Counted from the stretch's first letter, positions 1 through 25,790 are shown. The stretch: DNA of 64,000 nucleotides from an uncultured virus (IMG/VR IMGVR_UViG_2630968701_000001) (IMGVR_UViG_2630968701_000001); one strand, 5' to 3'. A program made the numbers and translations. The notes: generated from the letters alone by a model not told the origin.

Positions 1-413
1 ATTCGGTGAAGGACCGCACGGATCACTCCGATCTTTGGCAGCTTGATCCCGTTCTCTGTCAGAGCAACGGTCCCCTTCTGATTATTGGTCGTATAGGAGT
101 TTTTACACCGTTTTTTTGCCTTGAACTTTGGAACACCGAATGCCTTTGGATTCTCGATATGATCCTTGATCGCCTTGTTCTGCTGTTTCTGCACATTGGA
201 AAGTGCCAGACTATCCACTTCCTTTAGATACGGATACGCTTCCTTATACTGTGCCGGCTGCGGATACAGACTCTTTCCAGTATCTTTATAATACTGATTC
301 CGGTCTGCGAGCATCAGATTCCAGATCTTCCGGCAGCACCCAAAACACTTCGCAAAGAAGGTCCGCTGTTCCTCAGTCGGATAAACGCGGTACTTATATT
401 CTTTTTGTTGCAT
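1..413 (-). CDS. tnpB: TnpB RNA-guided nuclease, N-terminal part (absent from ORF track)
   Basis: Manual translation MQQKEYKYRVYPTEEQRTFFAKCFGCCRKIWNLML...KEVDSLAL...IKLPKIG, typical OrfB N-terminus; RBS AAGGAG upstream. Confidence 0.9.
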   Translation of the reverse strand, partial: MQQKEYKYRVYPTEEQRTFFAKCFGCCRKIWNLMLADRNQYYKDTGKSLYPQPAQYKEAYPYLKEVDSLALSNVQKQQNKAIKDHIENPKAFGVPKFKAKKRCKNSYTTNNQKGTVALTENGIKLPKIGVIRAVLHR

Positions 414-454
414 CAGCTCTCTTCTCCTTTCTCATAAATATCTTTCTACGATAA

Positions 455-491
455 ATATGAGAGATTTCGGAGAAAAAAACTTTTCACATAT
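455..491 (-). promoter_or_regulatory. Bipartite motif copy inside IS element A, upstream of tnpB
   Basis: ATATGTGAAAAG...TCTCTCATATTT, 37 bp. Confidence 0.8.
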
Positions 492-548
492 AAGAAAACC
501 GGATTCATCCCACTGCCTACAAAGGCAGGGCAATTCTCCGGAATTTTG

Positions 549-624
549 TTAAAGCCCTGATCTTGTATACTTTAATTCCATATATTTCCTTGAAGTTATC
601 TTTCACAATTTCATATTTTTTCAA
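549..624 (-). pseudogene. 5' fragment of a paralogue of 650..1111, interrupted by IS element A
   Basis: MKKYEIVKDNFKEIYGIKVYKIRAL aligns with MEKIELVKSMHKMVDGVKVYRIRAL. Confidence 0.75.
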
Positions 625-649
625 TGATACCACCTGCCATATGAAATTT

Positions 650-1111
650 TTAGTCTGAAATAAATGCATTCCCTGAAAGCACAGTTTTCCCATAAATTTT
701 TGCATTTCCAAAGACATTAATGTGATCACCGATACATACTTCATCAGTTAATTCTGCATTTCCAAAAACTTTTGAATGTCCTGCTACAATAGCTTTTCCA
801 CTTATTTTGGCATAATCTCTTACTGCTGCTTCTTCACAAATAGTTGAATTTCCACAAACTATTGCATTTCCAGTTACCAAAGCATTATCTTTGACCTTAG
901 CCATCCCATATACAGCAGCATTTTCAGCGATCCAGCAATTTCCTTCTTCCGACAAATTGAGCAGATATTGAGCATATCCTCCCAAATCACCTTTTTTAAC
1001 TTCTTTGCACTGAAGATGACGAGGATAAAAGGATTTTAACGCTCGAATTCGATATACTTTAACCCCATCTACCATTTTGTGCATACTTTTTACTAATTCA
1101 ATTTTTTCCAT
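650..1111 (-). CDS. Phage-type left-handed beta-helix (hexapeptide repeat) protein
   Basis: YRIRALK..GDLGGY..NLS.EGNCW followed by A.V.GNA.V repeats. Confidence 0.8.
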   Translation of the reverse strand: MEKIELVKSMHKMVDGVKVYRIRALKSFYPRHLQCKEVKKGDLGGYAQYLLNLSEEGNCWIAENAAVYGMAKVKDNALVTGNAIVCGNSTICEEAAVRDYAKISGKAIVAGHSKVFGNAELTDEVCIGDHINVFGNAKIYGKTVLSGNAFISD

Positions 1112-1341
1112 CTTTTTCTCCTTATCTTAAAAACATTTGTAATCCGTTTAAAAAAATTTACAATATCCTCTTTGATCATTTCTCTAGTATTGACAAAATC
1201 ACTTTCTTCATCTTTTTTCCCACGAAGTTGATTGTCTCTGTGTATATATAGGTTTACCAAGAATTCCATAAGGCTCAAATACCAAGCAAAAATTGTAAAT
1301 ACTAGAGCCAAAAGACACACAATCTGTATTGCAATATTCAT
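1093..1341 (-). CDS. Small membrane protein
   Basis: Hydrophobic N-terminus; RBS GAGGTG; follows motif copy 1407-1442. Confidence 0.65.
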   Translation of the reverse strand: MNIAIQIVCLLALVFTIFAWYLSLMEFLVNLYIHRDNQLRGKKDEESDFVNTREMIKEDIVNFFKRITNVFKIRRKRWKKLN

Positions 1342-1479
1342 TAATCTAACACCTCACCTTCTTCCAACTTTGATTTTCATCCTTTTATTTTTTTTCTTCA
1401 TTACAAATATGAGATATTTTTCAATCTTCATTTTTCATATATAAAATTTTTGCAAAAGAAAAGACGGGGTATCCCCGCC

Positions 1480-2244
1480 TTATAAAGTAATAATCTCCTG
1501 CCCACATAACAGTTTAATTTTTGTCTTCAAAATTCTCTGCTGATTTTTTGGAAGATCGATCGTCAGGTCATCAAGATCAGAGATATCTTTCTCTCCATCT
1601 AGTACATCTCCAACAAAATCCAAAATATCACTACAATTTTTGTAAATATAGTAATCTACTGCATATGGGCTGTACGTGCATCCATTATCCCGAATGAACT
1701 GATACATTCTTCTTCCTGCATGGCTGACTGTGATCTTAGTTGATTCTATGATCTCTGCATTCTCCTTGTTACGGTCTTTATCTTTTACCCGAAAGGAAAA
1801 ATACTGATCAAATCGAAGGACACAATCTTTGATCTGATTTTTTGTTAGATCTTTTTCAAAATGAGAGCACAGATCTTCCAATGTCACATGATGTTTTTCT
1901 TCTACAATGAAGCTGATGATCGCTGCTAATTCTCTGCGATTTTTTAACGCTTTTTCAAAATCATGTCGTTCTGATAAGACTGATTCATTTTTAAAATATA
2001 AGTCACATAATGCGACAAAATAGGTAAGATCCATGAAACGTCCTACAGAATAGTTTTTTAGCGTTTCAGGAACAATCATGCTTTTGACATCGTCATAACA
2101 GGCTTCAACAAGATTAAATACATTCGATCTGATTCCGTATTTGATGTATCGAAAAACATGTTCTTCAATTTCTCCTATCAGTTCATTTACTTCCTGATCA
2201 TTATCTTTTTCTGATATTACTTTTAAAAAATCTTCTTTTTTCAT
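1480..2244 (-). CDS. Hypothetical protein
   Basis: 254 aa ORF with GGAGG RBS. Confidence 0.7.
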   Translation of the reverse strand: MKKEDFLKVISEKDNDQEVNELIGEIEEHVFRYIKYGIRSNVFNLVEACYDDVKSMIVPETLKNYSVGRFMDLTYFVALCDLYFKNESVLSERHDFEKALKNRRELAAIISFIVEEKHHVTLEDLCSHFEKDLTKNQIKDCVLRFDQYFSFRVKDKDRNKENAEIIESTKITVSHAGRRMYQFIRDNGCTYSPYAVDYYIYKNCSDILDFVGDVLDGEKDISDLDDLTIDLPKNQQRILKTKIKLLCGQEIITL

Positions 2245-2491
2245 TTTCTTTCCGCCTCCAATTTTTCTGCGATTCTGCGCAGATCAATCTGTAATACTCC
2301 TTCCACATCTCCAGGCAGATCTGTTTTCATATTCTCAATGTCAGAAATTTTTTTTCTTTCCATCGATCAGATCTTCTACAAAATCCTGCACGATTTTTGC
2401 TGTTTTATAAGATGCCTGATCCAAAGCAAACTGACTCTAACTGATCTGCACACCAATAGGTGGCAGCTTTCACTCTCAAAGTTTTGTAATC
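2241..2491 (-). pseudogene. C-terminal remnant of a paralogue of 1480..2244
   Basis: DY|SQFALDQASYKTAKIVQDFVEDLIDGKKKISD aligns with YSPYAVDYYIYKNCSDILDFVGDVLDGEKDISD; frameshift at an A8 run; split by a 49 bp mini-IS. Confidence 0.7.
2437..2485 (-). mobile_element. 49 bp mini-element: fused left and right ends of IS element C
   Basis: TTAC|AAAACTTTGAGAGTGAAAGCTGCCACCTATTGGTGTGCAGATCAGTTAG; 5' part matches 13083 onward, 3' part matches 14946-14975. Confidence 0.9.
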
Positions 2492-3061
2492 TTAAATTAA
2501 CTGCGGTGAAATCTTTAGATAAATATCACAGAATGTGCTATCTCCAACACAATCTATTTTTTCAAGAAATGCTGGATGTTTTGTGAATCTGTCTCCACGA
2601 AAATAGATCCAATTAAATCCTCCTAATCTTGCACAAACTCGTAATATATTGTCTTGTCCAACATATTTATTGAATGTGTTCACATTTTTGATAATGTTTT
2701 TTCTGTCCTTCTTGCATTCAAATTTTGCTGTTTTTCGATGTCTTCCATGAATATTTTCCCATCTGACAGACTCATCCCATCCCGTTTCTTCATCATACTT
2801 TAAATATCTACGTCTTTTACTGGGTTTCATCTCATAACTTAACGTGGGTTGTAATCTTGGATCATTCCATCTGTGATAATCATCAATTAATGCAGCAACG
2901 TTTGCAACTTCATTTTCTATTATCATTTCATTTAATTCTTCTGTTGTAATTTTTCTTGTGAATTTCATTAAATTAAATGCTTTTAATTGAGGAATATTTA
3001 TATTAATTGAATCTAGTAAAAAATTCAATGCTTCAATGTTATAACTTTCATGTAAATACAT
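2492..3061 (-). CDS. Hypothetical protein
   Basis: 189 aa ORF after motif copy 3086-3121 and AAGGAG. Confidence 0.7.
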   Translation of the reverse strand: MYLHESYNIEALNFLLDSININIPQLKAFNLMKFTRKITTEELNEMIIENEVANVAALIDDYHRWNDPRLQPTLSYEMKPSKRRRYLKYDEETGWDESVRWENIHGRHRKTAKFECKKDRKNIIKNVNTFNKYVGQDNILRVCARLGGFNWIYFRGDRFTKHPAFLEKIDCVGDSTFCDIYLKISPQLI

Positions 3062-3171
3062 CTTGAATTTCTCCTTTTATTTTAAATATGACGGAATTTA
3101 TGAAAAAAGTTTTTCACATATAAAAAAACTCTGCGGCAAAACCTATATTGTCTTACAACAGAGTTTCTTGC

Positions 3172-3513
3172 TTATGATACAGTTAATGTATAGTCCATTG
3201 AAGCCCCGCTTCCATTTCCAAAAGCAAAGCGAATTATTTTATCATCGACTTTTTCATTTGTAAAATCATGAATTATTTCTCCGTTTTTATAATGATAGCT
3301 CCCCAAAGGACGATCCTTTGGATCAAAAATTACAATACATCCGCAATCTTCTGGTTTTGTTTCCAATATGATTTTAAGAAATTGATCAACTGTGCATTCC
3401 CTGTAAAAATGGGCTATATATCTGTTAGGAGCTGCTTGATTAAACTCAAATGGTTTATTATTCATTCCTTGCCTCTTCTTCGTTGACAACGATCTCTTTT
3501 TCTTTTTCGTCAT
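3172..3513 (-). CDS. Hypothetical protein
   Basis: Co-oriented ORF in operon. Confidence 0.6.
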   Translation of the reverse strand: MTKKKKRSLSTKKRQGMNNKPFEFNQAAPNRYIAHFYRECTVDQFLKIILETKPEDCGCIVIFDPKDRPLGSYHYKNGEIIHDFTNEKVDDKIIRFAFGNGSGASMDYTLTVS

Positions 3514-3544
3514 AGCTTGTTAATCTGCTCATTTTCTTTCTCCT

Positions 3545-4054
3545 TTATGGATCAATGATTGTTAATGTTTTATTTTTCATATCCTTCTTTAGCATATAGT
3601 CATGGTCATATTCCATTTTATTCAATAATTTCTTTATTTCTTTTTCTGATAGCTTCTTCTTATCATGCAAGATCTGATATCCATGCTGATATAAGATCTG
3701 TGCATTTTCGTATTCTCTTGAGCCGATTTTGATTCTTGCTATTTGCACAGTTTTAGACTTATGATTCGCCTGTAATACAATTTTTCTTTCTGGAATGAAA
3801 ATAGAATCAACAAATTGATATTCATCTGAATCTTTTTTATCCTTTTCTTCAGAGTAATTGTATTCATTTAACTGCGACAAAAATTGCTTGATAAGATTAT
3901 CTGAAAGAGTTTCCTGCTTGTATACAAATGTATAATTTTCTTTGTAACACTTCTCAATCTCATTCTTTGAAACAATATTGTCTTTTACTTGGCCAATGAT
4001 CGCAACAATGACAATAATTCCAAGTAGTACTTTGTAAGGAGTCTCAATTCTCAT
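3545..4054 (-). CDS. Membrane-anchored hypothetical protein
   Basis: N-terminal hydrophobic segment; overlaps stop of upstream gene. Confidence 0.65.
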   Translation of the reverse strand: MRIETPYKVLLGIIVIVAIIGQVKDNIVSKNEIEKCYKENYTFVYKQETLSDNLIKQFLSQLNEYNYSEEKDKKDSDEYQFVDSIFIPERKIVLQANHKSKTVQIARIKIGSREYENAQILYQHGYQILHDKKKLSEKEIKKLLNKMEYDHDYMLKKDMKNKTLTIIDP

Positions 4055-4644
4055 TCTTGCTCCTCCTTTTGCAAAATCAAGTCAATATCTTCAATCCTCT
4101 TCAAAAGACGTCTCTTTTCCTCTTTCAGAGCCCAAAAATCAATATCATCTTCTACAAGATCAATCTCATATTCTTCTGTTGGGCGTTCCAGAGCAGCTTC
4201 ATAAAGATTTTTGTTTACATTATGCAGCAGAATCTCACTACCTTTTTCAACTCCACTTTCCCAATGAGCTGCACTTCCACCACTGCATGGATTTCCATGA
4301 ACATAAACAACATCTCTTCCTGGTTTTCCACCGCTATCGCGTCCGTAGGCATGACTTAGAACTTTTCCAAAAAGCATCACATCTGCTTGTTCTTCACACA
4401 TATATTCTTTGACATGGATTCGAACGGTAACTTTTTCATTAATATCAACGTCTGAATACCCATAAATCTCTCTCATGACGGTTCTTGCAGCATCCAGATT
4501 TTCTTTATTGATCGTCCAGCATTTTTTACGAGTATCCCATCTGGCATCAGAAAATTGTTTGATCCTTTTGACAAAATCCATGTTATATGGTGTAAACAGC
4601 ATCGCCTTCTCATCTTTGATCTTTACCTGAATTTCTTTGCTCAT
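4051..4644 (-). CDS. Phage-like hypothetical protein
   Basis: TPYN.DFVKRIK...ARWD....W N-terminal motif; AAGGAG RBS. Confidence 0.65.
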   Translation of the reverse strand: MSKEIQVKIKDEKAMLFTPYNMDFVKRIKQFSDARWDTRKKCWTINKENLDAARTVMREIYGYSDVDINEKVTVRIHVKEYMCEEQADVMLFGKVLSHAYGRDSGGKPGRDVVYVHGNPCSGGSAAHWESGVEKGSEILLHNVNKNLYEAALERPTEEYEIDLVEDDIDFWALKEEKRRLLKRIEDIDLILQKEEQE

Positions 4645-5197
4645 TTGTGACTCCTTTCAATTCGATATCTTCTAGTTCTATCCCATCCAAAAGCAGCAAC
4701 CTGCCGCGATATTCTTTGATCTTGTATGGTCCTAATTCTTCTTTTGTCATGAAACGATGGCCAAATCGCTGTTTCATATTTTTCCAAACAATCCAGGGAA
4801 CCCGATAAAAGAATCTCATCTCCAGACTTACCATAACAAAGCATAAGGCATTTAGTTTTTGATGTTCGTCTAAGAGTTTTGTCTGTACTTCTGTTACAAC
4901 AGATTGTTGTATTCGGTCTTTAATCGTTGATTTTGCCTCAAAAATAATACATTGCCCGTTACATAAAACACCTTTGAAATCCGGCTGTGCTTTTTTCATA
5001 TAGAATCCAGTCACTCTTCCATCTTTTCGTACTTCAATTGTTTTAAACGGTTCCGGCGTTTTTAAAATACATGCGATCCCTCTTTCACGATAAAAGGAAA
5101 GACTGATTTCGATCAGTTCTTCAAAATTATCTCCATTGATTTTATTGTTTATGCAATACATAACAGCACCCAACTTCCAACTCCATCTTTCGTCCAT
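4610..5197 (-). CDS. recU: RecU-like Holliday junction resolvase (start may be Met at 5161)
   Basis: G..FE, K.PEP, PDFKG, FEAKST, V...Q motifs. Confidence 0.85.
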   Translation of the reverse strand: MDERWSWKLGAVMYCINNKINGDNFEELIEISLSFYRERGIACILKTPEPFKTIEVRKDGRVTGFYMKKAQPDFKGVLCNGQCIIFEAKSTIKDRIQQSVVTEVQTKLLDEHQKLNALCFVMVSLEMRFFYRVPWIVWKNMKQRFGHRFMTKEELGPYKIKEYRGRLLLLDGIELEDIELKGVTNEQRNSGKDQR

Positions 5198-5526
5198 TCT
5201 TTACACTTCTGATCAATTTCTTCAATTGGAGTATCCGAAGGGAAATCTACTACTTCTGCTCTTCGATAAGGAGCTTTTTCATATTTTGCATGCATCATGA
5301 TGTATACTTTGGAACACAATTCAAACGGATCGGAATATGTAATTTCTTTTTTCTTTTTTAAAGGTCTTCGGATAATTCCTTCTCCAACTTTTTTTGTTGC
5401 AGTTTTAAATTCCTCTTCTAATTTTTCACGATCACATTTTGGGCATGTCATTTTTCCTTCTTTGATGACCATTAAATGTCTGCATTTTGGACAGATCTTT
5501 AATCCTGTTGTAATTTTTTCCATCAT
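5149..5526 (-). CDS. Zinc-ribbon hypothetical protein
   Basis: CPKC-x11-CPKC. Confidence 0.65.
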   Translation of the reverse strand: MMEKITTGLKICPKCRHLMVIKEGKMTCPKCDREKLEEEFKTATKKVGEGIIRRPLKKKKEITYSDPFELCSKVYIMMHAKYEKAPYRRAEVVDFPSDTPIEEIDQKCKEWTKDGVGSWVLLCIA

Positions 5527-5800
5527 TCTCTTCTCCTTTATTTCCTTTCATTTAAATCGATATATAATTCTCGTTCAAACGAATCTGCTTCTATATTCAT
5601 TGTGTCATTTGGAATCATTCGATATTGAGATGGAACCTTTTTTAATTTATTGATGATTGTTTTAATATTTGGGACAACTTCGCCTGAATTAATAATTCTG
5701 TAGACTTTCCCGTCAAATTTAATAAAGCCATCTAAGGGACGGCTGGCAGCTTCTTCTTTACTGATTGCCTCAATCCATTTCACAATATCGTCATACTGTC

Positions 5801-7718
5801 GTGAACTACTCGGCAATTGAATTACCGCGCATCTGAAGAAGAACCTCAAACACTCATGTAAAACCATTCCGATTCTTTTGAAAAGAACCCATCTTATGTG
5901 CGAGCGCATAAGACAGAGAGCTTCCCATCGGAACAGTCCGGATACGGTCATGCCATACCAGGACAGCGGTAGTTCCTATGACCCGTAGTTCCGGCATCTA
6001 CACAGCTTTCGCTGCGATTTACGATACCATCCCTTGCGGGTGCTGCTTTTTAAATCGTTTGTTCTGTTCCATATAATAACCCTTAAGGGCATTTTGAAGA
6101 CCTTTCCCGTATCTGTGCTTTTCACAGATATCCATCAGATCTTTGTTTACTGCACGTTCCCGGATATTAATGCTTCCTACATGGTCTGCATCATCTTCAT
6201 AACCGCAGCAAGTACACCTGAACTTCTTTCCGTCTCGGTTTGCTCTGTCCAGGTTACCGCATACTGGGCAGACCTGGCTGGTAAACTCAGGAGCTACCTC
6301 AATGAAGTCATATCCTTTCCAGTTCAGTGCCCTCATCAGTGCTTCCTGTGTCTTGCCACGGGCAAAGCAGGAAAACATCCCGTTTACTTTACGGCTCTTC
6401 TTGAATTCTTTTATATCAAGACGCTCGATAACAGTAAGGGTGTCTCTTTTGAGTCCATCCATATATCCAGTAACAGATTTACGGATTTCCTGATCCAGCA
6501 GCCCGTAGTAGCGACGTTTCTTCCGGTATGGAGCATTCATCGTCTGCATCATCTCATCCAACCGGTCCATCTTCTGGATGAGAGAACGTCTCACATCCTC
6601 TGGAAGGGCCTTATGATGACGCAGATAATGGCTGATAGATCGTTTCTTGTTACGTAGATCGGAAAGACCGGCAAATGACGGTTCTACAGTGCTATGATAA
6701 AAATCAAGCACAGGTTTCATAGAGCCGATCGCATTCCCGTCGGAAGTGTGGAACACGTCCGTGATGCCGGTATCCACGCCTCTGATTACCGATGTCTTTG
6801 GCTGTTTCACGGAACGAGTGTAAGCCCATCCAACACGAAGATTCCCATTCTTTACACACACGAAAACAGATCCTGCCATTTTATTGCTTTTGATCTTATG
6901 CAGAGAATGTCTGCTGGTGTTCAAAGGAACGATGAAACGTTTATTCCTGTTGAATGGGTCTGTAACAGAAATGACGTACGGAGCTTTTATATCCGCTGAC
7001 TCTTCTATTCTCATCAGACGGCTGTCCAGAGGGACCTCGGTGCGTGAAATATGAGGAATCCTGTATTCTGCCGTATGAACAGCGTAGGAATCCACTAATT
7101 CTTGCATAAGGAAACGGAATTCATCTTCATCCAGACTGTCCAGTGTGTCTGCACAGTCTTTATAGAAACTGATATTCCTACCGTTCTTCCTGTTTGCAAG
7201 ATCTTTCATGACCGCAGACATTTCTTTTTTCGACTGTCTCATCAAAGACATGGCGAAAAGAACCTTAGACTGTGTAAATATGGTCTGATCCTCTGCATAC
7301 ATATCCTTACGGATTGTATTAATCCGGTTGGAAAGACGGGTAAATGCATAATCGAATGCCGCCTGACAGAACGCAGAATTTAAACCCGCAGGACGGAACT
7401 GTTTTTCCAGCTTCCGTACGACACTGTCTTTCTTGTCGTTTTTTACAAGCTGCAGGAACAGACCATCCGTCTCACAGATGGTTCTGATATTCTCGTTTGC
7501 AAGTTCACAGAATCTCTGCTGCATACGGGATAAAAGATGAAGTTTTGCTTTATTCGGTTCGCCGTAAAGAAACACGGACTTTACCGGTGATGTTTCAAAC
7601 GTCGAATCTTTTCGTCTGTATGCTCTTGCCATCGTCTGCTCCTTTCTTTAGTATTTTAAATTAACAAAAAACGCTTTCATCTCGTCAATTGAATTACCGA
7701 GGATTCCCGCTTATTATC
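5801..7718 (-). mobile_element. IS200/IS605-family tnpB-only element B
   Basis: Near-identical subterminal hairpins at 7681-7699 and 5809-5827 (18/19); right end GTAGTTCAC; TTAG precedes left end; removal restores host reading frame. Confidence 0.8.
6019..7632 (-). CDS. tnpB: Large TnpB (537 aa), RuvC triad intact
   Basis: GVDTG, VIERL, TSQVCPVCG..CTCCG zinc finger, DADHVGSINI. Confidence 0.9.
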   Translation of the reverse strand: MARAYRRKDSTFETSPVKSVFLYGEPNKAKLHLLSRMQQRFCELANENIRTICETDGLFLQLVKNDKKDSVVRKLEKQFRPAGLNSAFCQAAFDYAFTRLSNRINTIRKDMYAEDQTIFTQSKVLFAMSLMRQSKKEMSAVMKDLANRKNGRNISFYKDCADTLDSLDEDEFRFLMQELVDSYAVHTAEYRIPHISRTEVPLDSRLMRIEESADIKAPYVISVTDPFNRNKRFIVPLNTSRHSLHKIKSNKMAGSVFVCVKNGNLRVGWAYTRSVKQPKTSVIRGVDTGITDVFHTSDGNAIGSMKPVLDFYHSTVEPSFAGLSDLRNKKRSISHYLRHHKALPEDVRRSLIQKMDRLDEMMQTMNAPYRKKRRYYGLLDQEIRKSVTGYMDGLKRDTLTVIERLDIKEFKKSRKVNGMFSCFARGKTQEALMRALNWKGYDFIEVAPEFTSQVCPVCGNLDRANRDGKKFRCTCCGYEDDADHVGSINIRERAVNKDLMDICEKHRYGKGLQNALKGYYMEQNKRFKKQHPQGMVS

Positions 7719-7887
7719 CTAAATCTTTTAAAATGGAATCTTCATGTCTTGTACAATTTGTTTCACGAATAATAATTTTCATTTTTTCTTTTCTCCTTTA
7801 TTTCTTATTTTCTAATACAAATATGAAAGAATTTTTCCGAAAAGATTTTCACATATAAAAAAAGAGGCCATTACAACCTCTCTTTTT

Positions 7888-8046
7888 TTAATCGACAAAC
7901 CCGATAACGACACCGTTTTTGTCTACCAACGGGGTAGATGTTCCAGTTTCGTTATAGTATTCGCATGCTTCTGCATAGAAGCATCCTTCACAACAGTTTG
8001 TTGTGTTGAGCTTACATGCAGATACAGATTTATTTAGATTTTCCAT
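7888..8046 (-). CDS. 52 aa Cys-rich small protein (below ORF-track cutoff)
   Basis: MENLNKSVSACKLNTTNCCEGCFYAEACEYY...; AAGGAG RBS; terminator hairpin follows. Confidence 0.65.
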   Translation of the reverse strand: MENLNKSVSACKLNTTNCCEGCFYAEACEYYNETGTSTPLVDKNGVVIGFVD

Positions 8047-8146
8047 AATTTTTCTCCTTCTCCATTAATTAAGCTGTTATCGTACCGATCAGGGCATATT
8101 CACTCATGCTGCTATCCCTTTGACGGGAATACTTTTGGGATTCAGT

Positions 8147-8455
8147 TCATAGAACTTCCTGACTGATATACTTTCCAGTATCTTTGTCGAAATGAAAGCA
8201 TACTAAATTTGCACCGATCATTGTACAAGCATTGATAATAGCGACTGTTGCCATTGTTAATCCTGTAATGTACAAATTTACAAGATCGCCTTTTTCGATT
8301 TTATAATCGTTTTTTAAGACGTCTTGTGCTTGTGTTAATAGCTTCTTTGGATTCATTTCGATGATTATTGCTCCAAAGACAGCCCCGTCCGTTGCCTGAG
8401 GGATATCATGTCTTCCCTGACAAACAGCTACATTAATTGTTTTAAAATTTTTCAT
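8147..8455 (-). CDS. Hypothetical protein, paralogue of 27220..27588
   Basis: Shared MKTI.V..C.G, LY, C..(F/Y)DKDTGKYIS. Confidence 0.7.
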   Translation of the reverse strand: MKNFKTINVAVCQGRHDIPQATDGAVFGAIIIEMNPKKLLTQAQDVLKNDYKIEKGDLVNLYITGLTMATVAIINACTMIGANLVCFHFDKDTGKYISQEVL

Positions 8456-8628
8456 GATTTTTTCCTTAATTTTCTTTTCTCCTAATCGTCGTTAATATTT
8501 ACATCTCAAATATGAGGGATTTGATAACTCATAACTGACGGAAAAAAGAGAGCCAAAAAATGACTCTCTTGTAAAACTTTTCTCTTATTTTGTCAAAGCA
8601 TAGTCGCAGTCGAAATTTTCATTTCTTT

Positions 8629-9156
8629 CTACTTTACATCAAACAATTTTCTTGCATCTTTTAATGCTTTTTCAATGCATTCAAATTCAACTTCTAAACA
8701 TAAAGCTTTACAGTAATCATTGTCTAGATCAGGGCATACCGTGATAGTATGAGGAAATGCATGATCTTCTGCAGAGTTATAATATTTTTCTGCATCGTAT
8801 TTTGTTAGGTACCTTCTAAAAGAATGTAAGATATCATTCTCTTCTTCTTTGTTCTTTGCTCTTAAGACAATGACAGAATCTTCATCTTCTTTTGGCAGAC
8901 ATGTCTGAAGAATTCGTGAAAAGATATTTTGTTTTTTCAGTCCTTTTTCGATATCTTTTTTATAAGAATCAGAGTATTTTGGATCATTTGTATAGATCCC
9001 AAATTTCTTAAAACATTTTTTTTCGATTACTTCAAGATCGAGTTCGTCTTGATAAAACTGAGCATCGAATTTATCTTCGAATCTCTTTCCGTCAGAAGTG
9101 ATATAAATCTCTTTTTCTTCTCCTGTTACTTTGATTGTTTTGATTTTTGAATTCAT
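8629..9156 (-). CDS. YIT.DG family protein (copy 1 of 3)
   Basis: YITSDG..F, CF.K.GI.T, FP.T motifs shared with 19524 and 20173 ORFs. Confidence 0.75.
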   Translation of the reverse strand: MNSKIKTIKVTGEEKEIYITSDGKRFEDKFDAQFYQDELDLEVIEKKCFKKFGIYTNDPKYSDSYKKDIEKGLKKQNIFSRILQTCLPKEDEDSVIVLRAKNKEEENDILHSFRRYLTKYDAEKYYNSAEDHAFPHTITVCPDLDNDYCKALCLEVEFECIEKALKDARKLFDVK

Positions 9157-9274
9157 GATTTTTCTCCTTTATTTCTCTCAATCGTCATTAATAATTACAC
9201 TATAAGTATGAGATTTTTAAGAACGAATAATTTTCGTATCCATGAATTCTGGCATATTTCGCTTGCAATAGTTT

Positions 9275-9346
9275 TCCATCCGGTTTGCAATCAGACATGC
9301 AATGAGAACAATTCATTTTACATGCATATGTTAATTGAACAAGCAT
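9275..9346 (-). pseudogene. N-terminal fragment of radical SAM paralogue
   Basis: MLVQLTYACKMNCSHCMSDCKPDG nearly identical to start of 21757..22566. Confidence 0.85.
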
Positions 9347-9497
9347 TTTTCCGAAAAGATTTTCACATATAAAAAACACCAAAGATCTCTCTCTGATGTT
9401 TTTGCTCACTGAATCGGTTTATAGAGTTTTGCATTTAAGCAGTCCCTGTAAAATGGCAGGAAACGGGTTGTATATGCATTGATCGCTTCTTCGCTAG

Positions 9498-10306
9498 TCA
9501 ATTAGGTGTTGGAACAAAAATTAAATTATAAGCGATCTTATAGCTTTTTAGAGAAAACATAAGATCTGGAAGATCCAATGTATTTGTGTCCAATGCCTGA
9601 TTTAAAAGATCAAGAACCAATTTCTTTCTTGTATTATTCAGTTTCAAAAATTCAAATCGATAAAAATTAACCTGGAATCCAAAGAAGTTCTCATCGTGAT
9701 TATGCGGATCATAGAGTTCATAGCAGCACTGATCATTTTCTTTAAAGATTAAGTAAATTCGGTTTGGAAGAAATTGATGATTGTCTTCATTTTCATCTGG
9801 CCCTTTTGCTGAATTATTCAAAATCTTTTCTGGACTATCAGCGCAAATAGAATCGATCGCATCATGAAAGAAATTTGGATTATCTTGTTTTGCAATGACA
9901 TATTTTGATGTGATCCATAAGCAGATCGTAAATATTATTCCGATAATACATGTAACCAACAGAACATTTCTATAATTGTTTTTTTGATCAAATATACAAA
10001 ATCCTAATAGCCACACTCCAACATAAACTATTAATTTTTTTACAACACAAGAAATCCTTTCATACATGAAATTTTTTTTATAATTTTCTGATGGTCCAAG
10101 CCGAATTCCATTAACTCCAAGTGTTAGATACTCTGCCATATTCCATAATACTGGAAGCATAGTAACTGCTACAAAAGTGTCAAATGATGACAATATTACT
10201 TTTCCATAAAAGAATCTTTCCAATCCCTGCCAGATCAGTAAAAGTAAAAAGCAATTGTCAAAAAAAAGACAGACCTAGTAGCAATGATTTTTGTTTTTTT
10301 ACTCAT
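9498..10306 (-). CDS. Multi-pass membrane protein; probable frameshift at A7 run near the start
   Basis: Hydrophobic segments; ATG at 10306 with RBS joins the long frame if one base is removed from 10294-10300. Confidence 0.6.
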
Positions 10307-10535
10307 CTTTCTCCTCCTTAATCTCCATATAAGTTCCAAGTATCTGATCTGGATTGATCTTGAAATATTTGATGATTTTTTCTAATACCTGAAAGGATGG
10401 GACGCTGCGTCCAATTTCGTAATATGAAACCATGATTCTTGTAACTCCAAGAATATTTCCAAGATCTTCCTGTGTTAGATTATGTTCTTTTCTTAATTCT
10501 TTTAGATTTTTTATAAAGTTTTTTCTCAAGCGCAC
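10299..10535 (-). CDS. Xre/Cro-C1 family HTH regulator (GTG start)
   Basis: NLKELRKEHNLTQEDLGNILGVTRIMVSYYEIGRSVPS; AAGGAG before GTG 10535; directly behind motif 10564-10599. Confidence 0.9.
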   Translation of the reverse strand: MRLRKNFIKNLKELRKEHNLTQEDLGNILGVTRIMVSYYEIGRSVPSFQVLEKIIKYFKINPDQILGTYMEIKEEKDE

Positions 10536-10644
10536 TTCTCCTTTCGATATTCTCTTACTACAAATATGAGAGAAATTTTCGCTTTTATTTTTCATATATA
10601 AAAAAATTCCTGGAATTTCTTCCAAAGATTTCCGTATTTCATAC

Positions 10645-12593: not shown

Positions 12594-13170
12594 AGTTATC
12601 TCTCCTTTATTTTAAATATGAGAGAAATTTATAAAAAGAAAAATCATATATAAAAAAAGGACCAATCAAGGTCCCTTGTTGAAAAATTATGCATAGATCG
12701 CATACTGAATAAATCCAATATGAGCTTCCCAATTGAAATCTTTTGGCAGGTAATCTTCTAATTTTTCTTTGAATTCATCAATGATCTCATCCATTGAATG
12801 ATAACTTCCTTTGAAGATTTCCTGAAGCAATGTTGATTTGTCTGTGAAAAAAATACCGTAATAATCCCCATATAGTTCAAAACAATCATCTTCTCCACAA
12901 CGCTCATCACATTCAAATGGGTAAAAAATTCCGCCAGACATCTCATCTTTATATAACGAAATTTGGAAATGTTTTTCGTCATTTTCTTCAATTGAGGATG
13001 GATCTGCCTTTTTGCACTTTGATCGAATTAATGCTTGTTCATCAAGTTCTTCAACTGCAGTGTAGGCGTCAGGAACTTTTACAAAACTTTGAGAGTGAAA
13101 GCTGCCATCTATTGGGGTGCAGATGAAACTCGGCATTAAAATGGATAGGATTCAGAGAATCAAAAATCTT

Positions 13171-13207
13171 ATATGTGAAAAATATTTTTTTAAAAAATCT
13201 ATCATAT
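13171..13207 (+). promoter_or_regulatory. Bipartite motif copy inside IS element C, upstream of tnpB
   Basis: ATATGTGAAAAA...TCTATCATATTT, oriented with tnpB against the surrounding genes. Confidence 0.8.
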
Positions 13208-13240
13208 TTATAGTAAAAGAATCAAAAAAGGAGTGATCTT

Positions 13241-14737
13241 ATGGCAACCTACAGTCTGGAGTTAAAATTGAATACAAAGAAAGCTTCCGATTGCTGGTAT
13301 CTGGAGAACTACTTCCGAGAAGTGGCCAAGATCAGCAACGCCGTGCGGCGTTTTGCCATGCGCAGGATCGAACGTCTGAAGCGGGATAAGAACTATCGGG
13401 ATCTGTTGGCACAATACATAAAACTCATCAAGCAGGACAAAGAGAAAGAAAAGGAGACTGTTGGGAAGGAACTGTCTGTTGTCGTCTGGTCTTACGGATT
13501 GACAAAATTTTATTTGCAAAAGTCCGCACTCGATCTGCGAAAGAACCTGCGGTATGTTCACTCCACAGTTTATCAAAAGATCTGTGATCAGGTATGGAAA
13601 GGTGTTGAGAAGGTCCTGTATGCAGATGGAAAGCGGATGCATTTCAAGAAATGGGATGACTTCTTAAGTTTCGAGGGAAAATCCAATACTACAGGAATCA
13701 TCTATCAGGACGGGAAAGTGTATATCAACTGTACGCCGAAACGTCCAAATGGAGGGATCATTCTGTCCGTAAAGTTGCCGAACAATAAAAACAACGATCA
13801 CTGGAACTATGAGACGAGATGCTTGTGCGATCCAACAAAATACTGCCGGATCGTAAGGAAGAAGTTTTCTTCCGGATGGTGTTATTATGTCCAGCTGATC
13901 CAGGAAGGGATCCCGCCACAGAAACATGTAAGAGGGACCGGAAGGATCGGGATCGATATCGGGACCTCTACGGTTGCTACAGTATCTGAAACAGCATGTC
14001 ATTTAGATGTTCTGGGAGATTCCATGGAGACAAAGGAGAAAGAGATCCGAAGACTACAGCGAAAGATGGATCGCAGCCGCAGAGCGACAAATCCTCAGAA
14101 TTATAAGGAAGATGGAAGGGTCAAAAAGGAAAAAAAACGATGGGCCTACAGTCATCATTATCAAAAAATGCGGGATCAGTTAAAGACGATGCGAAGAAAA
14201 CGTACAGCTTCCCTAAAACAGTGGCAGGAGATCTATGCAAACCGTCTGCTCGAAGAAGGAGATGAAGTTTATGTGGAGGATATGAGCTTTAAGGCATTAA
14301 AGAAACGAAAAAAGAAGACGGAGAAAAAGGAGAACGGTCGGTACAAGAGTAAGAAACGGTTCGGGAAGTCGATCGGGAATCATGCTCCGGCACAGTTCCT
14401 GACGATCGTGAAGCAGAAACTGGATCAGACCGGCGGGAAATACCATGAAGTTAATACACGGAAGTTTAAAGCCAGTCAGTATGATCATGTGACCGATACT
14501 TATACCAGAAAGAAACTAACAAAACGGCATCATTGGGCAGACAGAGACTGGGTGCAGCGAGATCTGTACAGTGCGTTTCTTCTGATGAACTCTAACAAAA
14601 GTTTAGAACATGCCGACCGTGACTTGTGCCTTCTTCATTATCCGTCCTTTAAAATACTCCATGACCAGTGTATCGAAGAGATCATCGCATCCGACAAACA
14701 TATCCCTGCAAGCTTTGGCTTCCATCGTGCAGCATAG
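13241..14737 (+). CDS. tnpB: TnpB (498 aa), RuvC triad intact, no canonical zinc finger
   Basis: GIDIG, YVEDM, QRDLYSA; LQRKMDRSRRATNP.NY. Confidence 0.9.
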   Translation: MATYSLELKLNTKKASDCWYLENYFREVAKISNAVRRFAMRRIERLKRDKNYRDLLAQYIKLIKQDKEKEKETVGKELSVVVWSYGLTKFYLQKSALDLRKNLRYVHSTVYQKICDQVWKGVEKVLYADGKRMHFKKWDDFLSFEGKSNTTGIIYQDGKVYINCTPKRPNGGIILSVKLPNNKNNDHWNYETRCLCDPTKYCRIVRKKFSSGWCYYVQLIQEGIPPQKHVRGTGRIGIDIGTSTVATVSETACHLDVLGDSMETKEKEIRRLQRKMDRSRRATNPQNYKEDGRVKKEKKRWAYSHHYQKMRDQLKTMRRKRTASLKQWQEIYANRLLEEGDEVYVEDMSFKALKKRKKKTEKKENGRYKSKKRFGKSIGNHAPAQFLTIVKQKLDQTGGKYHEVNTRKFKASQYDHVTDTYTRKKLTKRHHWADRDWVQRDLYSAFLLMNSNKSLEHADRDLCLLHYPSFKILHDQCIEEIIASDKHIPASFGFHRAA

Positions 14738-15193
14738 AGAAAAATAAATAACAACAACGGATCCAGCTGAGTCCGTCAGACTGCCGAAAGGTGAAACGTG
14801 CCATGCATGGATGTCTGAAATGTTTCTGCAACAGAGAGACTATAACTGACAGCTTTCTGACATCAAAAAAGTACCAGATCCTCTGAGATAGAAGAACCGA
14901 TACCGATGTTTTGAGACCTTAAGTGATGTCCTCTTGTACTGGAACCTGCCACCTATTGGTGTGCAGATCAGTTAGCATATCCCTTCCACATATTTCTTTT
15001 AGATATTTTTTGCAAAACTCAATTGTCTCCTTTTCATCCAAAATTAATGCTGTTCCACTTTCTGCATACCAATTACTGCTCATAATTCATTTCTCCTTTT
15101 CTCTGAATCGTCATTTTAAATGTTTCAGTTTAAATATGAGAGATAAGAAAAAGCATAAAGAAAAAGAGACCTATTGCAGTCTCTTTTTTTAAA

Positions 15194-15456: not shown

Positions 15457-15496
15457 TCATTTTCTCCTATAATTATTTTTCTGATTTTTTATCTAA

Positions 15497-16709
15497 TTAT
15501 CTCTTAGTTATCTCCAACCAGTTATCGATGATATTATCTTTTCCATCTGTGTTAATTTCAACTTCAAGGTCTTCAATGCAGAATCCCAGAAATTCATCAA
15601 ACGTCATTCCAATGATGGCTGAGAGTACTTTGTTAAATGATTCCTTGTCATTACATTCCAGATAAATATTCATCAATGTTACAGCCACGTTATTATCTCT
15701 ATTTGCTTTACGTAATAGAATTTCCATGATACTATTACAATTCTGATCTGTGCAGTTTTCTGCTGCTTCTTCTAATTTTACAACTTTAACAATTTTTTCC
15801 AATATCGTCATATCTTTTTTCTCCTTTATTCTTCTACAATATCAACGTCATATTCCAAAAAAATTGACAGGTCATAATTATCTGTGACGCCCCATACACT
15901 TCTATATCCATCTTCTGCAAGATCTTCTCCACAATTGATGTCTGCTAAGATGAGTGCTTTTGTTGGAATATGTGTATGACAAGCAGTATCAATTCCAGCA
16001 TCCATGATCTCTTTGCGTTTTGCTTTACATTCTCTAATGAATGCTTCAACTTCTTTTTCTCCTCTATTCGTTAATTTCCAATTTTCTATTGTATCCCATT
16101 TTGTATAATCCATATTATTCTCCTTTATAATATCAATCCTGTGTTCTGTTGATCTATAGCTTCTTTACATTTCTTTAGATATTCATAAAACGTAATTCCA
16201 GTAAACAATTTAAACATCTGTTCAAATGCTTCTTCATCGACTGTTTTTTTGTAAATTTCGAATAGTTCATTTGAAGAACATTTAAAATTTTCTATTTTGT
16301 CTCTCATGATCTGCTGCAATACAGCATCTGGACCTGCATTCAAATTGCAGGACTCATTATTCATAAGATTCTCATTTAATTGAATGACCTCTTTGAACAG
16401 CATCTTTGTAAATACGTCGCCTATCTGAATATTTTCTAATTCTTCAGATAAAACATCCATGTCTTCATCTACGGTTGCAGCATCTTTTACCGCTTCTTTG
16501 ATCTTATTAAATAAATTACTGCAATCAGCATGTCTATAATTCGTTATCATAAGACGCCATCCTGATGGCCCAAATTCTGGGCGTTTATAGTCTACAATTA
16601 TATGAAGTTCTGTCCAATCCTTTATCAATTTGAGTTCAAATTCAAAATCTGTTTCTTCAGATAACTGTTTTAAAAAGCTTTCAATTTCATCGATTTCTTT
16701 TCTATTCAT
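15497..16709 (-). other. Three acidic hypothetical genes (15497-15811, 15826-16113, 16125-16709)
   Basis: Each has AAGGAG RBS; 15497 ORF resembles the C-terminus of the 16125 ORF (IY....D.E.F.......G.TF.E.L). Confidence 0.7.
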
Positions 16710-18569: not shown

Positions 18570-18581
18570 AATTTTTCTCCT

Positions 18582-19512: not shown

Positions 19513-19523
19513 ATTCTTTCTCC

Positions 19524-20685: not shown

Positions 20686-20695
20686 AATTCTCTCC

Positions 20696-21593: not shown

Positions 21594-21756
21594 AAATGAC
21601 TATTTTTATTGATAGGAAAAATACACCATACCCAAAAGACTGACTAACGTGAAAAGAAGTAAATGATGAAGTAGATGATTCCGATCATGATTAAGAACGG
21701 GATCATATAAATGATTCCTATGAGAATGTAATACTGATTCATAGATTCCTCCTTTT

Positions 21757-22566: not shown

Positions 22567-22686
22567 TTTCTTTTTCTCCTTTTTTCCTTTTCTACTACAA
22601 ATATGAGATATTTTCAGAGAAAAAATTTTTACATATAAAAAACATAAAAAAACAGACTCTGTTTACTTACAAAGCCTGCTCTCTTT

Positions 22687-23649
22687 TTATAAATTCTTCT
22701 TAATTTGAATAATATGATTTTTTAACACATTGTATCCTTTCAATTGTCCTGAATATAATAAACGATTATCACATAACTTATGTTTTTGTAAATCTTCAGA
22801 TATTTCTTTTCGTTTTTCTTCAATATCTTTTAATAATGAATTCAGCATTTTGACATTTGCTTCTTTCTCAATCTGCTCTTTTCCAATTAAACTGATCAAT
22901 TCCGACTCTTCTAATTCTTCTTCCAAGAAAATGAAATCTAAAACTTTGTCAATTGCAGATAAAGGATATCGATCTTCTTTTGTACAAAAATTATCTTTAT
23001 CTTTTAATCTTCGGACACAAGAAAACCAACTATCTTCTATGCGAACCCATTTATAGTTCGTTTCGGTGCTGCAATTATAGGAAAATTTATAGTTAGGTTT
23101 TGCGGATTCAATGACTGCATTTTCTAGCATTTCTCTCATTAATTCTCTTTTTGATCGCATTCTTTCTCTTCTCCTTTATTGTCAATTTTTCTTAGCATTT
23201 ATAAGATACTCTCTCAAACCGTGATAAGTACTACGTGTTTCTACCCTACTTTTAGATCCTTCTTCTAATTCTGATTCTATATACTCTAAAAATAAATTCA
23301 ACATTTTAACATTTGCTTCTTTTTGAATCTGTTCTTTTCCAAAAAAATCAGCCAATTTGGGATCTTTTTCTTCTAGTTCTTTTTCCAGAAACATAAAATC
23401 CAACACTTTATCTATCTCGTGCAATGAATATCGATATTCTTTTTCACACCTATTGTGCGGATCCCTCAATCCACGAATACAATGGAAAAGATCATTTTTT
23501 ATGAAAACTATTTTGTAAGCTTCTTTACTTTTATAAGTGTATTTAAATCCAGAATCCGTTTTTGCAGATTCAATGATGACTGCTTTTTCTAATGTTTTTC
23601 TCATATCTTTTCTTGGGGATTGCATTCTTTTTCTCCTTCTTTTTTTCAT
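22687..23649 (-). other. Tandem paralogous pair (22687-23160, 23182-about 23625)
   Basis: Shared MR..LE.AV.IESAK, IDKVLDF.FLE.ELEE, GKEQI.KEANVKMLN. Confidence 0.8.
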
Positions 23650-24209
23650 AAAATTCTTTTAATAGCTGCACATACCATACATTATCGAGCGTTTCTTTTG
23701 TAATATCTTCAAAATCATTCGGATCATTGATCACACTCCAATAACTCTCACATCCATAAATGATCTTCTTTAATTCAAATACATAGATCGCGGGATTATT
23801 CATAGTACAGATATGTAATTGTTTGTTTTTCCTTTCATAAGAAACGTAATTTTGTGTCGGAAGATTTCCTAAATACATGCCAAGATAGGTCTTTTCTTTG
23901 TATTCTTTTGCACATGGCATAATACGAATTGGTGTTCCTGGTTCGTATCGATTCCATGATTTGAACGGTTCATATTTAATTTTGTTAACTTCAATTGGAT
24001 ACTGAATATGTTTGTTCTTAAATTGTATACAGGATTCACATTCCTCTCCACTAACAGCGACAATATCATCTTCTACTTTTTTGCTACAATACACTTCGTG
24101 AAGCCTCACACGACTAAAGTTGCGTGCTTCCCATCAGCGCTTAGACGCGCATAGCTCCTTTAGAGAGCGGGAACTACATTTCTACAGATACAGTCTGAAC
24201 TCAGATGAC

Positions 24210-25547
24210 TTATGCCACAGAGGACACAAGCTCCGCATTCAGACGAATTAAAGTAGACCATGTGCAGGTGCTTCTCTTAGCGACCTGAGGAACTTCTGCC
24301 TCAAGTGCCAACCTTTCCTTCTCAGGCAAGGATTTTAAGATCTCCCGGATAAAATACCGGGCTCCGATATTATAGGATGCAGAAAGATCGCAGTTATAGA
24401 CTTTTCCGTTCTGGAACTGGCAGACACTGTAAGATGGGAATCCTGCCTGTTTTCCGCGCAGGACTCGTCCACTTCCATCATAAGCCAGTCTGGAAGTGTT
24501 CCAGGCACAGATCCGGGCGATATGCATTCCCAGACGATGCGCTTTATCCGTTACGATCCTCTGGACTTCCTGACTCTTCCACAGGTGTAGCCGTTGTTTT
24601 CTGGAACCGCGTTTCTTTCCTTTCTTTTCTAAATATTCAAAGACGATGACGTCTGCGTTGTAAAGGACTGCGACATCCATGATAAACTCTGCAGTTTTGA
24701 CAGAGATGTCATGATTGATCCCGTTCACTTTTGCCCATAACCTCGGCATCTTGCGGTTTCCATGCTGCTGCGCTTTCTTGATCCGGTTGATATTGTGCGT
24801 TAGACAGTCTTGTTCCTTTGGAAGTTTTAAAAAATGTCTTCCAATGATAGTGCCGTCACTACACATCACACTGATCGTTGCAGCAGAGTTGATCCCAAGA
24901 TCGACCGCACAGATGATCCGGTCCGCAACATCCACGTCACATAGTTCTAAAAATTCTTCAAATGGGAAGTCCAGATGCCACTCTTTTCCACGTTTTTGTA
25001 ACACAGGAGCACACTTTCTCCGACCGGAACATCTACGATCGATATAATCCATGTCAGATTTTCGGAGTTTGATGTCCAGCCAGTCCCAGGTATTTCGGAT
25101 ATATACCTTGATCCTTGCTTCATAGGCTCCAGTCCTCTGATACATGTTCTTTCGGTACATGCATGGGCAGATATATCCGGCTCTTGGAAACGAAGGTCTG
25201 CGTCCACGAGTGTTTGGATCCTCTTCTTCCCAGTTTTTCAGATTACTTTTATAAGAAGAAACCTTGCCGATCGCTTCATTGATCGCAGCACGTCGAAGGA
25301 AACTCGGAAACTTATAAAACTTTTTGTCAAAGTCATAAACCGTTTCCGGATGCTTCTTCGTAAAATGGCATAGCCGTTCCACATACTGCTGACGAGATAG
25401 TGACAGATCGATCTTTTTGATCTCTGCCCATTCTTTCAGACAGACATTGATCAGAAAGTCCACGGCATGACGATAGACTTCCACGGTTCCGCGAAAGATA
25501 TAATTGTATGTCTTGATCTTTACTTTATATGTGGAAAGTATCTTCAT
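24210..25547 (-). CDS. tnpB: TnpB (445 aa), RuvC triad intact
   Basis: AVDLG, VFEYL, NCDLSASYNI. Confidence 0.9.
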   Translation of the reverse strand: MKILSTYKVKIKTYNYIFRGTVEVYRHAVDFLINVCLKEWAEIKKIDLSLSRQQYVERLCHFTKKHPETVYDFDKKFYKFPSFLRRAAINEAIGKVSSYKSNLKNWEEEDPNTRGRRPSFPRAGYICPCMYRKNMYQRTGAYEARIKVYIRNTWDWLDIKLRKSDMDYIDRRCSGRRKCAPVLQKRGKEWHLDFPFEEFLELCDVDVADRIICAVDLGINSAATISVMCSDGTIIGRHFLKLPKEQDCLTHNINRIKKAQQHGNRKMPRLWAKVNGINHDISVKTAEFIMDVAVLYNADVIVFEYLEKKGKKRGSRKQRLHLWKSQEVQRIVTDKAHRLGMHIARICAWNTSRLAYDGSGRVLRGKQAGFPSYSVCQFQNGKVYNCDLSASYNIGARYFIREILKSLPEKERLALEAEVPQVAKRSTCTWSTLIRLNAELVSSVA

Positions 25548-25586
25548 GTCGTAGTCTCCTTCCTGGTTATGATTTTCTTATTATAA

Positions 25587-25622
25587 ATATGAGATTTTTC
25601 ATAATTTATAATTTTCATATAT
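25587..25622 (-). promoter_or_regulatory. Bipartite motif copy inside IS element D, upstream of tnpB
   Basis: ATATATGAAAA...TCTCATATTT, 36 bp. Confidence 0.8.
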
Positions 25623-25790
25623 AAAAATTTTCTTTCTGTTTAAATAGAAGCACCACCTAACTCACGACTAAAGTCACGAGTGTGTGGGGGTGATTTGATC
25701 AAAATTTTCACCCATATATGGAAAAGAATATGAGCAATTTTTCTGACGTTCTGTTGGCTTTTTTCGTTTCTCTGACATTTTATTTTCTCC

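Follow-up and report, generated by a model that had tools for sequence, protein, structure and literature searches.

The stretch analyzed here, 64,000 nucleotides from an uncultured virus (IMG/VR IMGVR_UViG_2630968701_000001; hereafter the window, i.e., the whole stretch at its full length), is part of a Firmicute-type conjugative plasmid that carries four insertion sequence (IS) elements with TnpB-type genes, designated A to D. Profile scans with Pfam, which covered 77 of the 81 open reading frames (ORFs) predicted in the window, detected a type IV secretion system gene set (VirB4/TraG-like, PrgI and VirB6-like genes as well as two coupling-protein-like genes), an actin-like partition gene, two RecD2-like helicases, an NlpC/P60 giant protein, a group II intron, an IS4-like transposase and a Mob_Pre relaxase, in addition to the four TnpB-type genes. 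Nearly all genes lie on the minus strand, and the GC content is 30-42%. The coupling protein is 36-54% identical to its Firmicute plasmid counterparts, and a comparison of positions 1-25000 and 40000-64000 against PLSDB and a phage collection yielded no near match except one 55-bp hit. The window sequence is also present in coded isolate genomes and in mouse-gut samples; isolates carrying the plasmid are represented by runs X1-X4. Three of the four IS elements (A, C and D) hold a copy of a cassette of approx. 50 bp that also occurs in the plasmid backbone, and the comparisons reported below give good support to the view that several tnpB-only IS lineages acquired it separately.

Read on the transcribed strand, the cassette consists of a T-run, the box TTATATGTGAAAA, a spacer of 17 nt (18 nt in the copies inside A and C), the box TCTCATATTT and an RTARTA or TATAAT-like hexamer of the form T-R-W-A-N-T; a ribosome-binding site (RBS) and a start codon follow approx. 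25-50 nt beyond the hexamer. The strict pattern AAATATGA..TTTCAYATATA had 11 exact matches in the window as compared to none in 100 shuffles, and a two-box weight matrix recovered 14 copies with 36-50 bits, with no match of 18 bits or more in 20 shuffles. These shuffles rule out chance or AT-richness as the source of the cassette. Among the 14 copies (12 on the minus and two on the plus strand; Table 1), three are IS-borne and 11 are located in the backbone, and every copy points to the next gene. Backbone copies come after T-run hairpins, with terminators called at the positions given in Table 1 and, in addition, at 15188-15161, ahead of a half-copy. This half-copy (window 15131-15160) has the proximal TCTCTCATATTT box only and lies between the terminator and the gene interrupted by element C.

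Table 1. IS elements and cassette copies in the window (positions counted from the first base of the window)
Feature	Position	Strand	Remarks
IS element A, cut by window start	1..548	-	target TTTAA (549-553, + strand TTAAA); left-end hairpin ~508-531; tnpB N-terminus 3-413
Cassette inside A, 18-nt spacer	447..497	-	score 46.9
IS element B, no cassette	5801..7718	-	tnpB 6019-7632; left end ~84 nt; target TTTAG
IS element C	13083..14975	+	TTAC 13079-13082; hairpins 13101-13121 and 14946-14966; tnpB 13241-14737
Cassette inside C, 18-nt spacer, against local gene flow	13165..13215	+	score 42.2
IS element D	24098..25697	-	target TTGAT; left-end hairpin ~25660-25683; tnpB 24210-25547; structured 3' region and right end to 24098
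Cassette inside D, 17-nt spacer	25579..25628	-	score 46.1
Cassette copy, backbone	1399..1448	-	weight matrix; terminator 1481-1461 ahead
Cassette copy, backbone	3078..3127	-	weight matrix
Cassette copy, backbone, would read into B	7813..7862	-	score 46.9; start codon of interrupted gene 7782-7780
Cassette copy, backbone, directly ahead of Cro/CI-type helix-turn-helix gene	10556..10605	-	weight matrix, Pfam
Cassette copy, backbone	12608..12657	-	weight matrix; terminator 12677-12656 ahead
Cassette copy, backbone	22593..22642	-	weight matrix
Cassette copy, backbone	27782..27831	-	weight matrix
Cassette copy, backbone, ahead of RecD2-like helicase gene	30180..30229	-	weight matrix, Pfam
Cassette copy, backbone	42799..42848	+	weight matrix; 90-bp patch around copy recurs in L089
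Cassette copy, backbone	61134..61183	-	weight matrix
Cassette copy, backbone, ahead of actin-like partition gene	63533..63582	-	weight matrix

The original prediction, made from this sequence alone, had placed a motif copy inside each of A, C and D and had proposed that the motif travels with these elements; the weight matrix located all three copies at coordinates in agreement with those given there, and the element boundaries bear out the proposal. For D, an empty site was found in L088, where the flanks are joined as ...TTTTGAT directly followed by GAAGTGTATTG..., and contigs from runs X1, X4 and X6 skip exactly 1600 bp, with position 24097 adjoining 25698. D is inserted at the same site in L124, and a D-like left end with the cassette occurs in run X1 on a contig with different flanking DNA. 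Element C interrupts a 167-aa minus-strand plasmid gene, whose intact homologues (P0002-P0005) match 36 and 131 residues of the two C-split fragments and read ...ICGR[D/N]M followed without a gap by [V/L]KVPDAY... over the junction. The C and D boundaries had initially been fixed by in-frame restoration of the interrupted genes; both boundaries stand on the evidence of the homologues (C) and the empty sites (D), but restoration alone was dropped as proof of the C boundary, as the frame would be restored wherever a cut falls between two codons. For A, the left end and its cassette follow TTTAA behind at least four different flanks (including two sites in L111 as well as L131 and L186). The boundaries of A, C and D thus place three cassette copies inside the elements, between the left-end hairpin and the tnpB RBS. 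The cassette in C is oriented opposite to the local gene flow, as had been noted, with C on the plus strand and its neighbours on the other. Element B, likewise in agreement with the earlier description, lacks the cassette and is inserted 64 nt into a gene starting at 7782, the first gene behind the backbone copy at 7813-7862; the corresponding empty site, with TTTAG at the junction, was found in L147.

Hairpins are near-identical at the two ends of C; both ends of D have ACTTTAGTCGTG cores, which are homologous to those of L056 and seven genome relatives, and a GGTAATTCAATTG core is common to both ends of B. Insertion 3' of a tetra- or pentanucleotide without target duplication was found for all four elements (from the empty sites of D and B, the codon-exact position of C behind TTAC, and the position of A behind TTTAA). 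No family match to a Y1 (HUH) transposase TnpA was obtained among the 77 of 81 ORFs scanned, and the elements are tnpB-only. A separate observation concerns L186:200-360, where an A-like element is inserted at a TTTAA within the 17-nt spacer of a backbone cassette, splitting that copy.

The TnpBs of A to D are dissimilar, as had been claimed, with no significant similarity found by BLASTP among the four proteins (best E 0.06). Each of them matched the guided_TnpB model, B, C and D with scores below its cut-off. The tnpB of A, which is cut off by the window start after 137 aa and ends before the RuvC D-E-D positions, matched Pfam HTH_OrfB_IS605 above the cut-off (69.5 bits) and the NCBIfam models IS200_TnpB and guided_TnpB, and B matched Pfam Cas12f1-like_TNB above the cut-off (57.7 bits) as well as TnpB/Cas12f sequences in the PDB. 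Pfam scores for C and D were 23.9 and 24.8, as compared to a cut-off of 30.5, and a PDB sequence search with these two TnpBs returned no match. NF040570 (guided_TnpB) was matched near full length by B, C and D with E values of 3e-19 to 4.5e-22, but at 70-79 bits as compared to a cut-off of 100 (for C, the match to NCBIfam guided_TnpB had E 7.8e-22). B, C and D are full-length ORFs in which the columns of the predicted RuvC D-E-D triad (G[IV]D.G plus the second-motif E and the third-motif D) align with those of relatives, so that the triads described in the original prediction appear intact at the sequence level. For D and its family members, 70 base pairs are predicted in the end of tnpB and the right end combined, and 36 of them have compensatory changes among nine sequences; the region is partly coding. 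All 9 of the 9 aligned members of this family lose sequence similarity after ..GGCTTCAC, which coincides exactly with the IS boundary. Rfam searches at the IS elements (gathering or E<=1 thresholds) matched no guide-RNA or other family.

Three further lineages with the cassette in the same left-end position were found on metagenome contigs, namely E in L075 (a 567-aa protein with 31% identity to C), D2 in L192 (62% identity to D across its 45 available aa) and F in L087 and L120 (449 aa), which shows no similarity to any of A-E. The fact that both D and D2 keep the cassette at the same position would point to its long-term retention. Three different flanks adjoin the F left end. In one case F is a mini-element with an internal deletion (L071:3850-4230, also in L072), in which the left-end hairpin and cassette are joined to the last 28 tnpB codons and the right end; this non-autonomous element would express only the 3'/right-end RNA.

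Relatives of these elements outside the plasmid family were sampled from 401 Lachnospiraceae genomes (111 loci, 299 kb fetched). The sample comprised 21 loci from 15 genomes for C, 30 loci from 20 genomes for D (33-74% identical), 30 of 109 matching places in 60 genomes for A (47-59% identical) and 30 of 35 matching places in 22 genomes for F (31-47% identical). None of the 111 loci contained a cassette of 18 bits or more, where the weakest accepted IS copy scores 23 bits, and none of three loci in phage contigs contained one; scans of phage contigs yielded no relative of the B or C TnpB. The check that the original prediction had called for, i.e., whether chromosomal relatives lack the motif and plasmid-borne ones have it, thus came out in its favor, although none of these relatives is near-identical. 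Instead of the cassette, the D relatives L056 and L057 (phage contigs; 65% aa identity) have a homologous hairpin followed by TTGACA-17 nt-TATGAT and then tnpA, and the E relative L043 (50% aa identity) has a homologous hairpin with compensatory changes followed by a TTGACA box. In the A relative L225 (phage contig; 63% aa identity) the start codon lies 15 nt past the hairpin, and the C relatives L035, L037 and L055 (34-42% aa identity) have tnpA directly upstream. The motif had been described as lying where tnpA normally lies; this holds for the C and D families but not for A and E, whose relatives are also tnpB-only. As an aside, the tnpA upstream of the D-like tnpB in L056:1040-1480 (and in L057) has an in-frame TAG near its start, which reflects either a pseudogene or phage stop-codon reassignment.

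The distribution of the cassette was analyzed in one genome per species, for 185,579 species, and in metagenomes. The genome scan found 34 loci with a single match each, mostly in unrelated taxa and chance-like, of which five look genuine (L006, L022, L028, L031 and L034); none of the 34 loci had a tnpB downstream of the cassette. When five genomes with one exact copy were rescanned allowing up to two mismatches, 14 places were found in all, with at most five per genome. A host-wide sigma-factor regulon was ruled out, as no representative genome had more than one exact copy. The metagenome scan found at least 167 cassette loci, largely on contigs labelled human gut, which were up to 136 kb long and had several copies each; at least 166 distinct copies were extracted. 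Cargo on the cassette-bearing contigs includes Cas9, DnaE, topoisomerase, SecA/SecY and pilins. The cassette marks one plasmid family and not the host chromosome, which bears out the identification of the motif as a plasmid motif. We infer that the cassette copies form a promoter/operator regulon that has not been described before, in a family of gut plasmids without an entry in PLSDB.

Two of the metagenome contigs call for separate mention. A related cassette-bearing contig of 81 kb carries a Cas9 gene (L058:3-2840; REC lobe, HNH, bridge helix). In L106:950-1830 (also in L155, L162, L212 and L218), a cassette behind the plasmid DnaE gene is followed by approx. 850 nt of approx. 50% GC without an ORF, a stretch which could represent a decayed element or encode a large non-coding RNA; Rfam searches on L075, L089, L106 and L155 matched no family.

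Taken as a whole, it appears likely that a plasmid control cassette has been adopted by several tnpB-only lineages and that tnpB has come under the plasmid circuit. A family of conjugative plasmids of gut Firmicutes sets one cassette of ~50 bp ahead of nearly every operon, and several unrelated tnpA-less IS200/IS605 lineages of this family (A, C and D in the window; D2, E and F in sister plasmids) have the same cassette between the left-end hairpin and tnpB, such that tnpB would be transcribed from the plasmid regulatory circuit and not from an IS promoter. In other TnpBs the guide RNA is processed from the tnpB mRNA; if the same processing applies here, the guide RNA (3' end and right end) would be expressed likewise. 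B would gain the same expression from the backbone copy upstream of the gene into which it is inserted. Expressed TnpB-guide complexes could then cut IS-free alleles (target motif plus right flank), which would favor retention, copying or exclusion.

The empty D and B alleles found in sister plasmids have the target motif adjoining the right-end flanking sequence. This arrangement of target motif and right flank is the configuration that TnpB systems are reported to cleave (Meers et al. 2023, 10.1101/2023.03.14.532601; Karvelis et al. 2021, PMC8612924). Cutting of IS-free alleles would be a further step, derived from this published TnpB biology, and homing or the cutting of competitor plasmids is a plausible hypothesis. 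The more far-reaching proposal that tnpB-only IS elements are RNA-guided allele drives or exclusion weapons that are switched on by the plasmid programme, perhaps in an entry burst, with empty-site sisters being converted or eliminated, is tentative and, in our judgment, rather unlikely. Of the interpretation offered in the original prediction, what stands is that the cassette is plasmid-specific, IS-borne and absent from outside relatives, with separate acquisition as the simplest reading.

Separate acquisition is the simplest reading because unrelated TnpB lineages carry the cassette. Consistent with it, the C cassette has 32 identical nt (spacer included) in common with a backbone copy in L216 and aligns over 66 nt with copies in L123 and L223 at 88-89% identity, a likeness which fits derivation from one backbone subclass.

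A number of observations weigh against the preferred explanation as a whole, and we considered them together with the alternative explanations to which some of them lend support. A-like tnpB genes are decayed elsewhere, by a frameshift in L112 and by a stop at codon 2 (ATG-TAA) in L186, which speaks against all of the elements being functional. The tally of lineages is biased upward since the metagenome loci were fished with the cassette itself; the unbiased carrier count is three of the four window elements. The same applies to A-type left ends with the cassette in L077, L111 and L131, where the next gene is not tnpB; in L077, at window A's own insertion site, tnpB has given way to 108 nt plus a paralogue of the gene that was interrupted. 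Furthermore, a patch of 90 bp in L089:2960-3050, which extends from the T-run to the start (both boxes, leader, RBS and ATGGA) and is 97.8% identical to window 42795-42884, lies on a chromosomal contig of 55-60% GC, between a glycogen phosphorylase gene and mfd and ahead of a GC-rich ORF of ~60 aa. This patch appears to be a cassette transplanted outside the plasmid family, and its foreign context hints that the cassette may work without a plasmid factor. The cassette also moves as a unit by routes besides full tnpB elements.

These solo left ends, the mini-element in L071 (which retains the left end, cassette, last 28 codons and right end) and the foreign context of the L089 patch, where it would drive the GC-rich ORF, are what would be expected if the cassette were a portable promoter that is spread partly by IS elements, with the cassette belonging to IS left ends or to small recombining patches, with solo or truncated left ends donating it to plasmid genes and with flow from IS to plasmid or in both directions. 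We regard this explanation as improbable, as what precedes the 11 backbone copies of the window are terminator hairpins or T-runs and not IS hairpins, only a handful of the 166 distinct metagenome copies listed adjoin IS ends, and IS relatives outside the plasmid family are without the cassette.

Further points against the preferred reading, i.e., separate adoption of the plasmid cassette, concern the independence of the acquisitions. No near-identical sister without the cassette was found, the cassette-free relatives being only 31-74% identical, which leaves room as to when and how often the cassette was acquired. The minority variant TCTTATAT is common to elements A, C, E and F (the base C at that position in ~25% of metagenome copies, among the matches listed), and the hairpin foot GGGATGAA is common to A, E and F, such that some exchange of left-end modules between IS elements is possible. 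Together with the 18-nt spacer in both the A and C copies, these shared features would also fit a single capture, followed by passage between IS families through recombination at the shared 50 bp. This scenario, in which acquisitions would not be independent, seems improbable given that the hairpins, target sites (TTTAA, TTAC and TTGAT) and TnpBs are all unrelated, that spacers and 5' leaders vary by lineage, that the C copy is closest to one backbone subclass (as shown by the identity to L216) and that D and D2 carry a TTTTTATAT variant.

The function of the cassette must also be weighed. Judged from position and sequence, the cassette is a putative promoter/operator, and a plasmid-specific factor that reads it is likewise putative. 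The hexamer T-R-W-A-N-T is present, with T at position 6 in 94% of 139 distinct metagenome copies with a 17-nt spacer (among the matches listed), and AAATCTC ahead of CATATTT is conserved in the same listed copies; neither this T nor AAATCTC was fixed by the search pattern. The -35 position, however, is an unconserved T-rich stretch without a canonical box, and in positions 1-16000 a sigma-70 scan called fewer sites than expected (49 as compared to a shuffle mean of 58.6), including only one of the seven cassette copies in this region. With no conserved -35 and with sigma-70 sites below shuffles, the cassette is read as a putative promoter with a -10-like hexamer and two conserved boxes that a factor would recognize. 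To our knowledge, there is no convincing fit of the boxes to sporulation or other alternative-sigma consensus sequences.

Alternatively, the cassette could serve chiefly as the operator of a global repressor or DNA-organizing protein of the plasmid and not as an independent promoter, with tnpB silent in established cells (which would limit toxicity or allow a burst upon entry into a new host). This explanation has little probability, and it would alter the sign of the plasmid coupling but not the coupling itself. In its favor, the two boxes are imperfect inverted repeats of each other (7 of 8 positions agree between ATATGTGA and TCTCATAT) and bracket the expected -35 region, and a Cro/CI-type helix-turn-helix gene lies directly behind the copy at 10556-10605. 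Against it, the half-sites are 28 bp apart centre to centre, which is no whole number of helical turns, and the remainder of the IS left ends shows no evident sigma-70-type promoter. The helix-turn-helix gene (window 10299-10605) is a possible regulator of the cassette; its true start is probably a TTG near 10530, since the longest ORF call overlaps the cassette.

A literature search on TnpB in combination with plasmid, promoter and competition yielded no report of promoter capture by tnpB elements, and text matches to the two cassette halves included none of relevance among those listed. We know of no report of resident IS elements that carry the global control element of their plasmid. The KorA/KorB operators of IncP plasmids are an example of a global operator/promoter regulon in conjugative plasmids; the likeness to the cassette is that one short conserved element lies ahead of many plasmid operons, whereas sequence, host range and factor differ. 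The elements described here resemble tnpB-only IS200/IS605 elements (IS1341-like) and their derivatives in their subterminal hairpins at both ends, in insertion 3' of a fixed sequence of 4-5 nt without duplication and in the TnpB ORF, behind which lie the right end and a 3' region with predicted structure, with tnpA absent though relatives with tnpA exist. They differ in that the segment from hairpin to tnpB is the operon cassette of the host plasmid, in several unrelated lineages of one plasmid family.

With the reports on TnpB-mediated transposon retention (10.1101/2023.03.14.532601; PMC8612924), a further likeness is that the target motif (TTGAT, TTAC or TTTAA) lies at the left end and that the flank of the right end would be the guide. 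The systems described there are reported to have tnpA, with excision creating the target, whereas the present elements are tnpA-less and the targets would be IS-free plasmid variants, which are known from sequence. Native IS605 promoters are reported to be bound by an IS-encoded Arc repressor (Moon et al. 2026, bioRxiv 10.64898/2026.09.24.754181). In both cases intergenic IS sequence beside tnpA or tnpB serves, or here would serve, as a promoter under dedicated control; in the Arc system, promoter and regulator belong to the IS, whereas here the control element is shared with plasmid operons.

The findings bear on the role and expression of tnpA-less TnpB elements, which belong to a gene family that is among the most abundant in prokaryotes; the adoption of the control element of the carrier plasmid by several unrelated lineages would be a concrete case in which a plasmid regulon is linked to a transposon nuclease. 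Under the proposal of allele drives or exclusion weapons, convergent capture by five or more unrelated TnpB lineages would be a mark of selection for this coupling. Natural empty-site alleles exist as targets, and plasmid-bearing isolates exist as well.

Three other features of the window were observed. A group II intron at 30315-32041 (reverse transcriptase/maturase ORF 30315-31727; Rfam D1-D4 matches 31750-32041) is located just upstream of the cassette at 30180-30229. A block on the opposite strand at 34000-37700 has a locally reversed GC skew; within it, the Mob_Pre relaxase (35115-36161) adjoins the IS4-like DDE transposase (36187-37707), and the block is probably an inserted mobilisable element. 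Beside the cassette at 27782-27831, 542 bp (27237-27780) are swapped for seven other letters in contigs of X4, X5 and X6, a second indel polymorphism of this plasmid.

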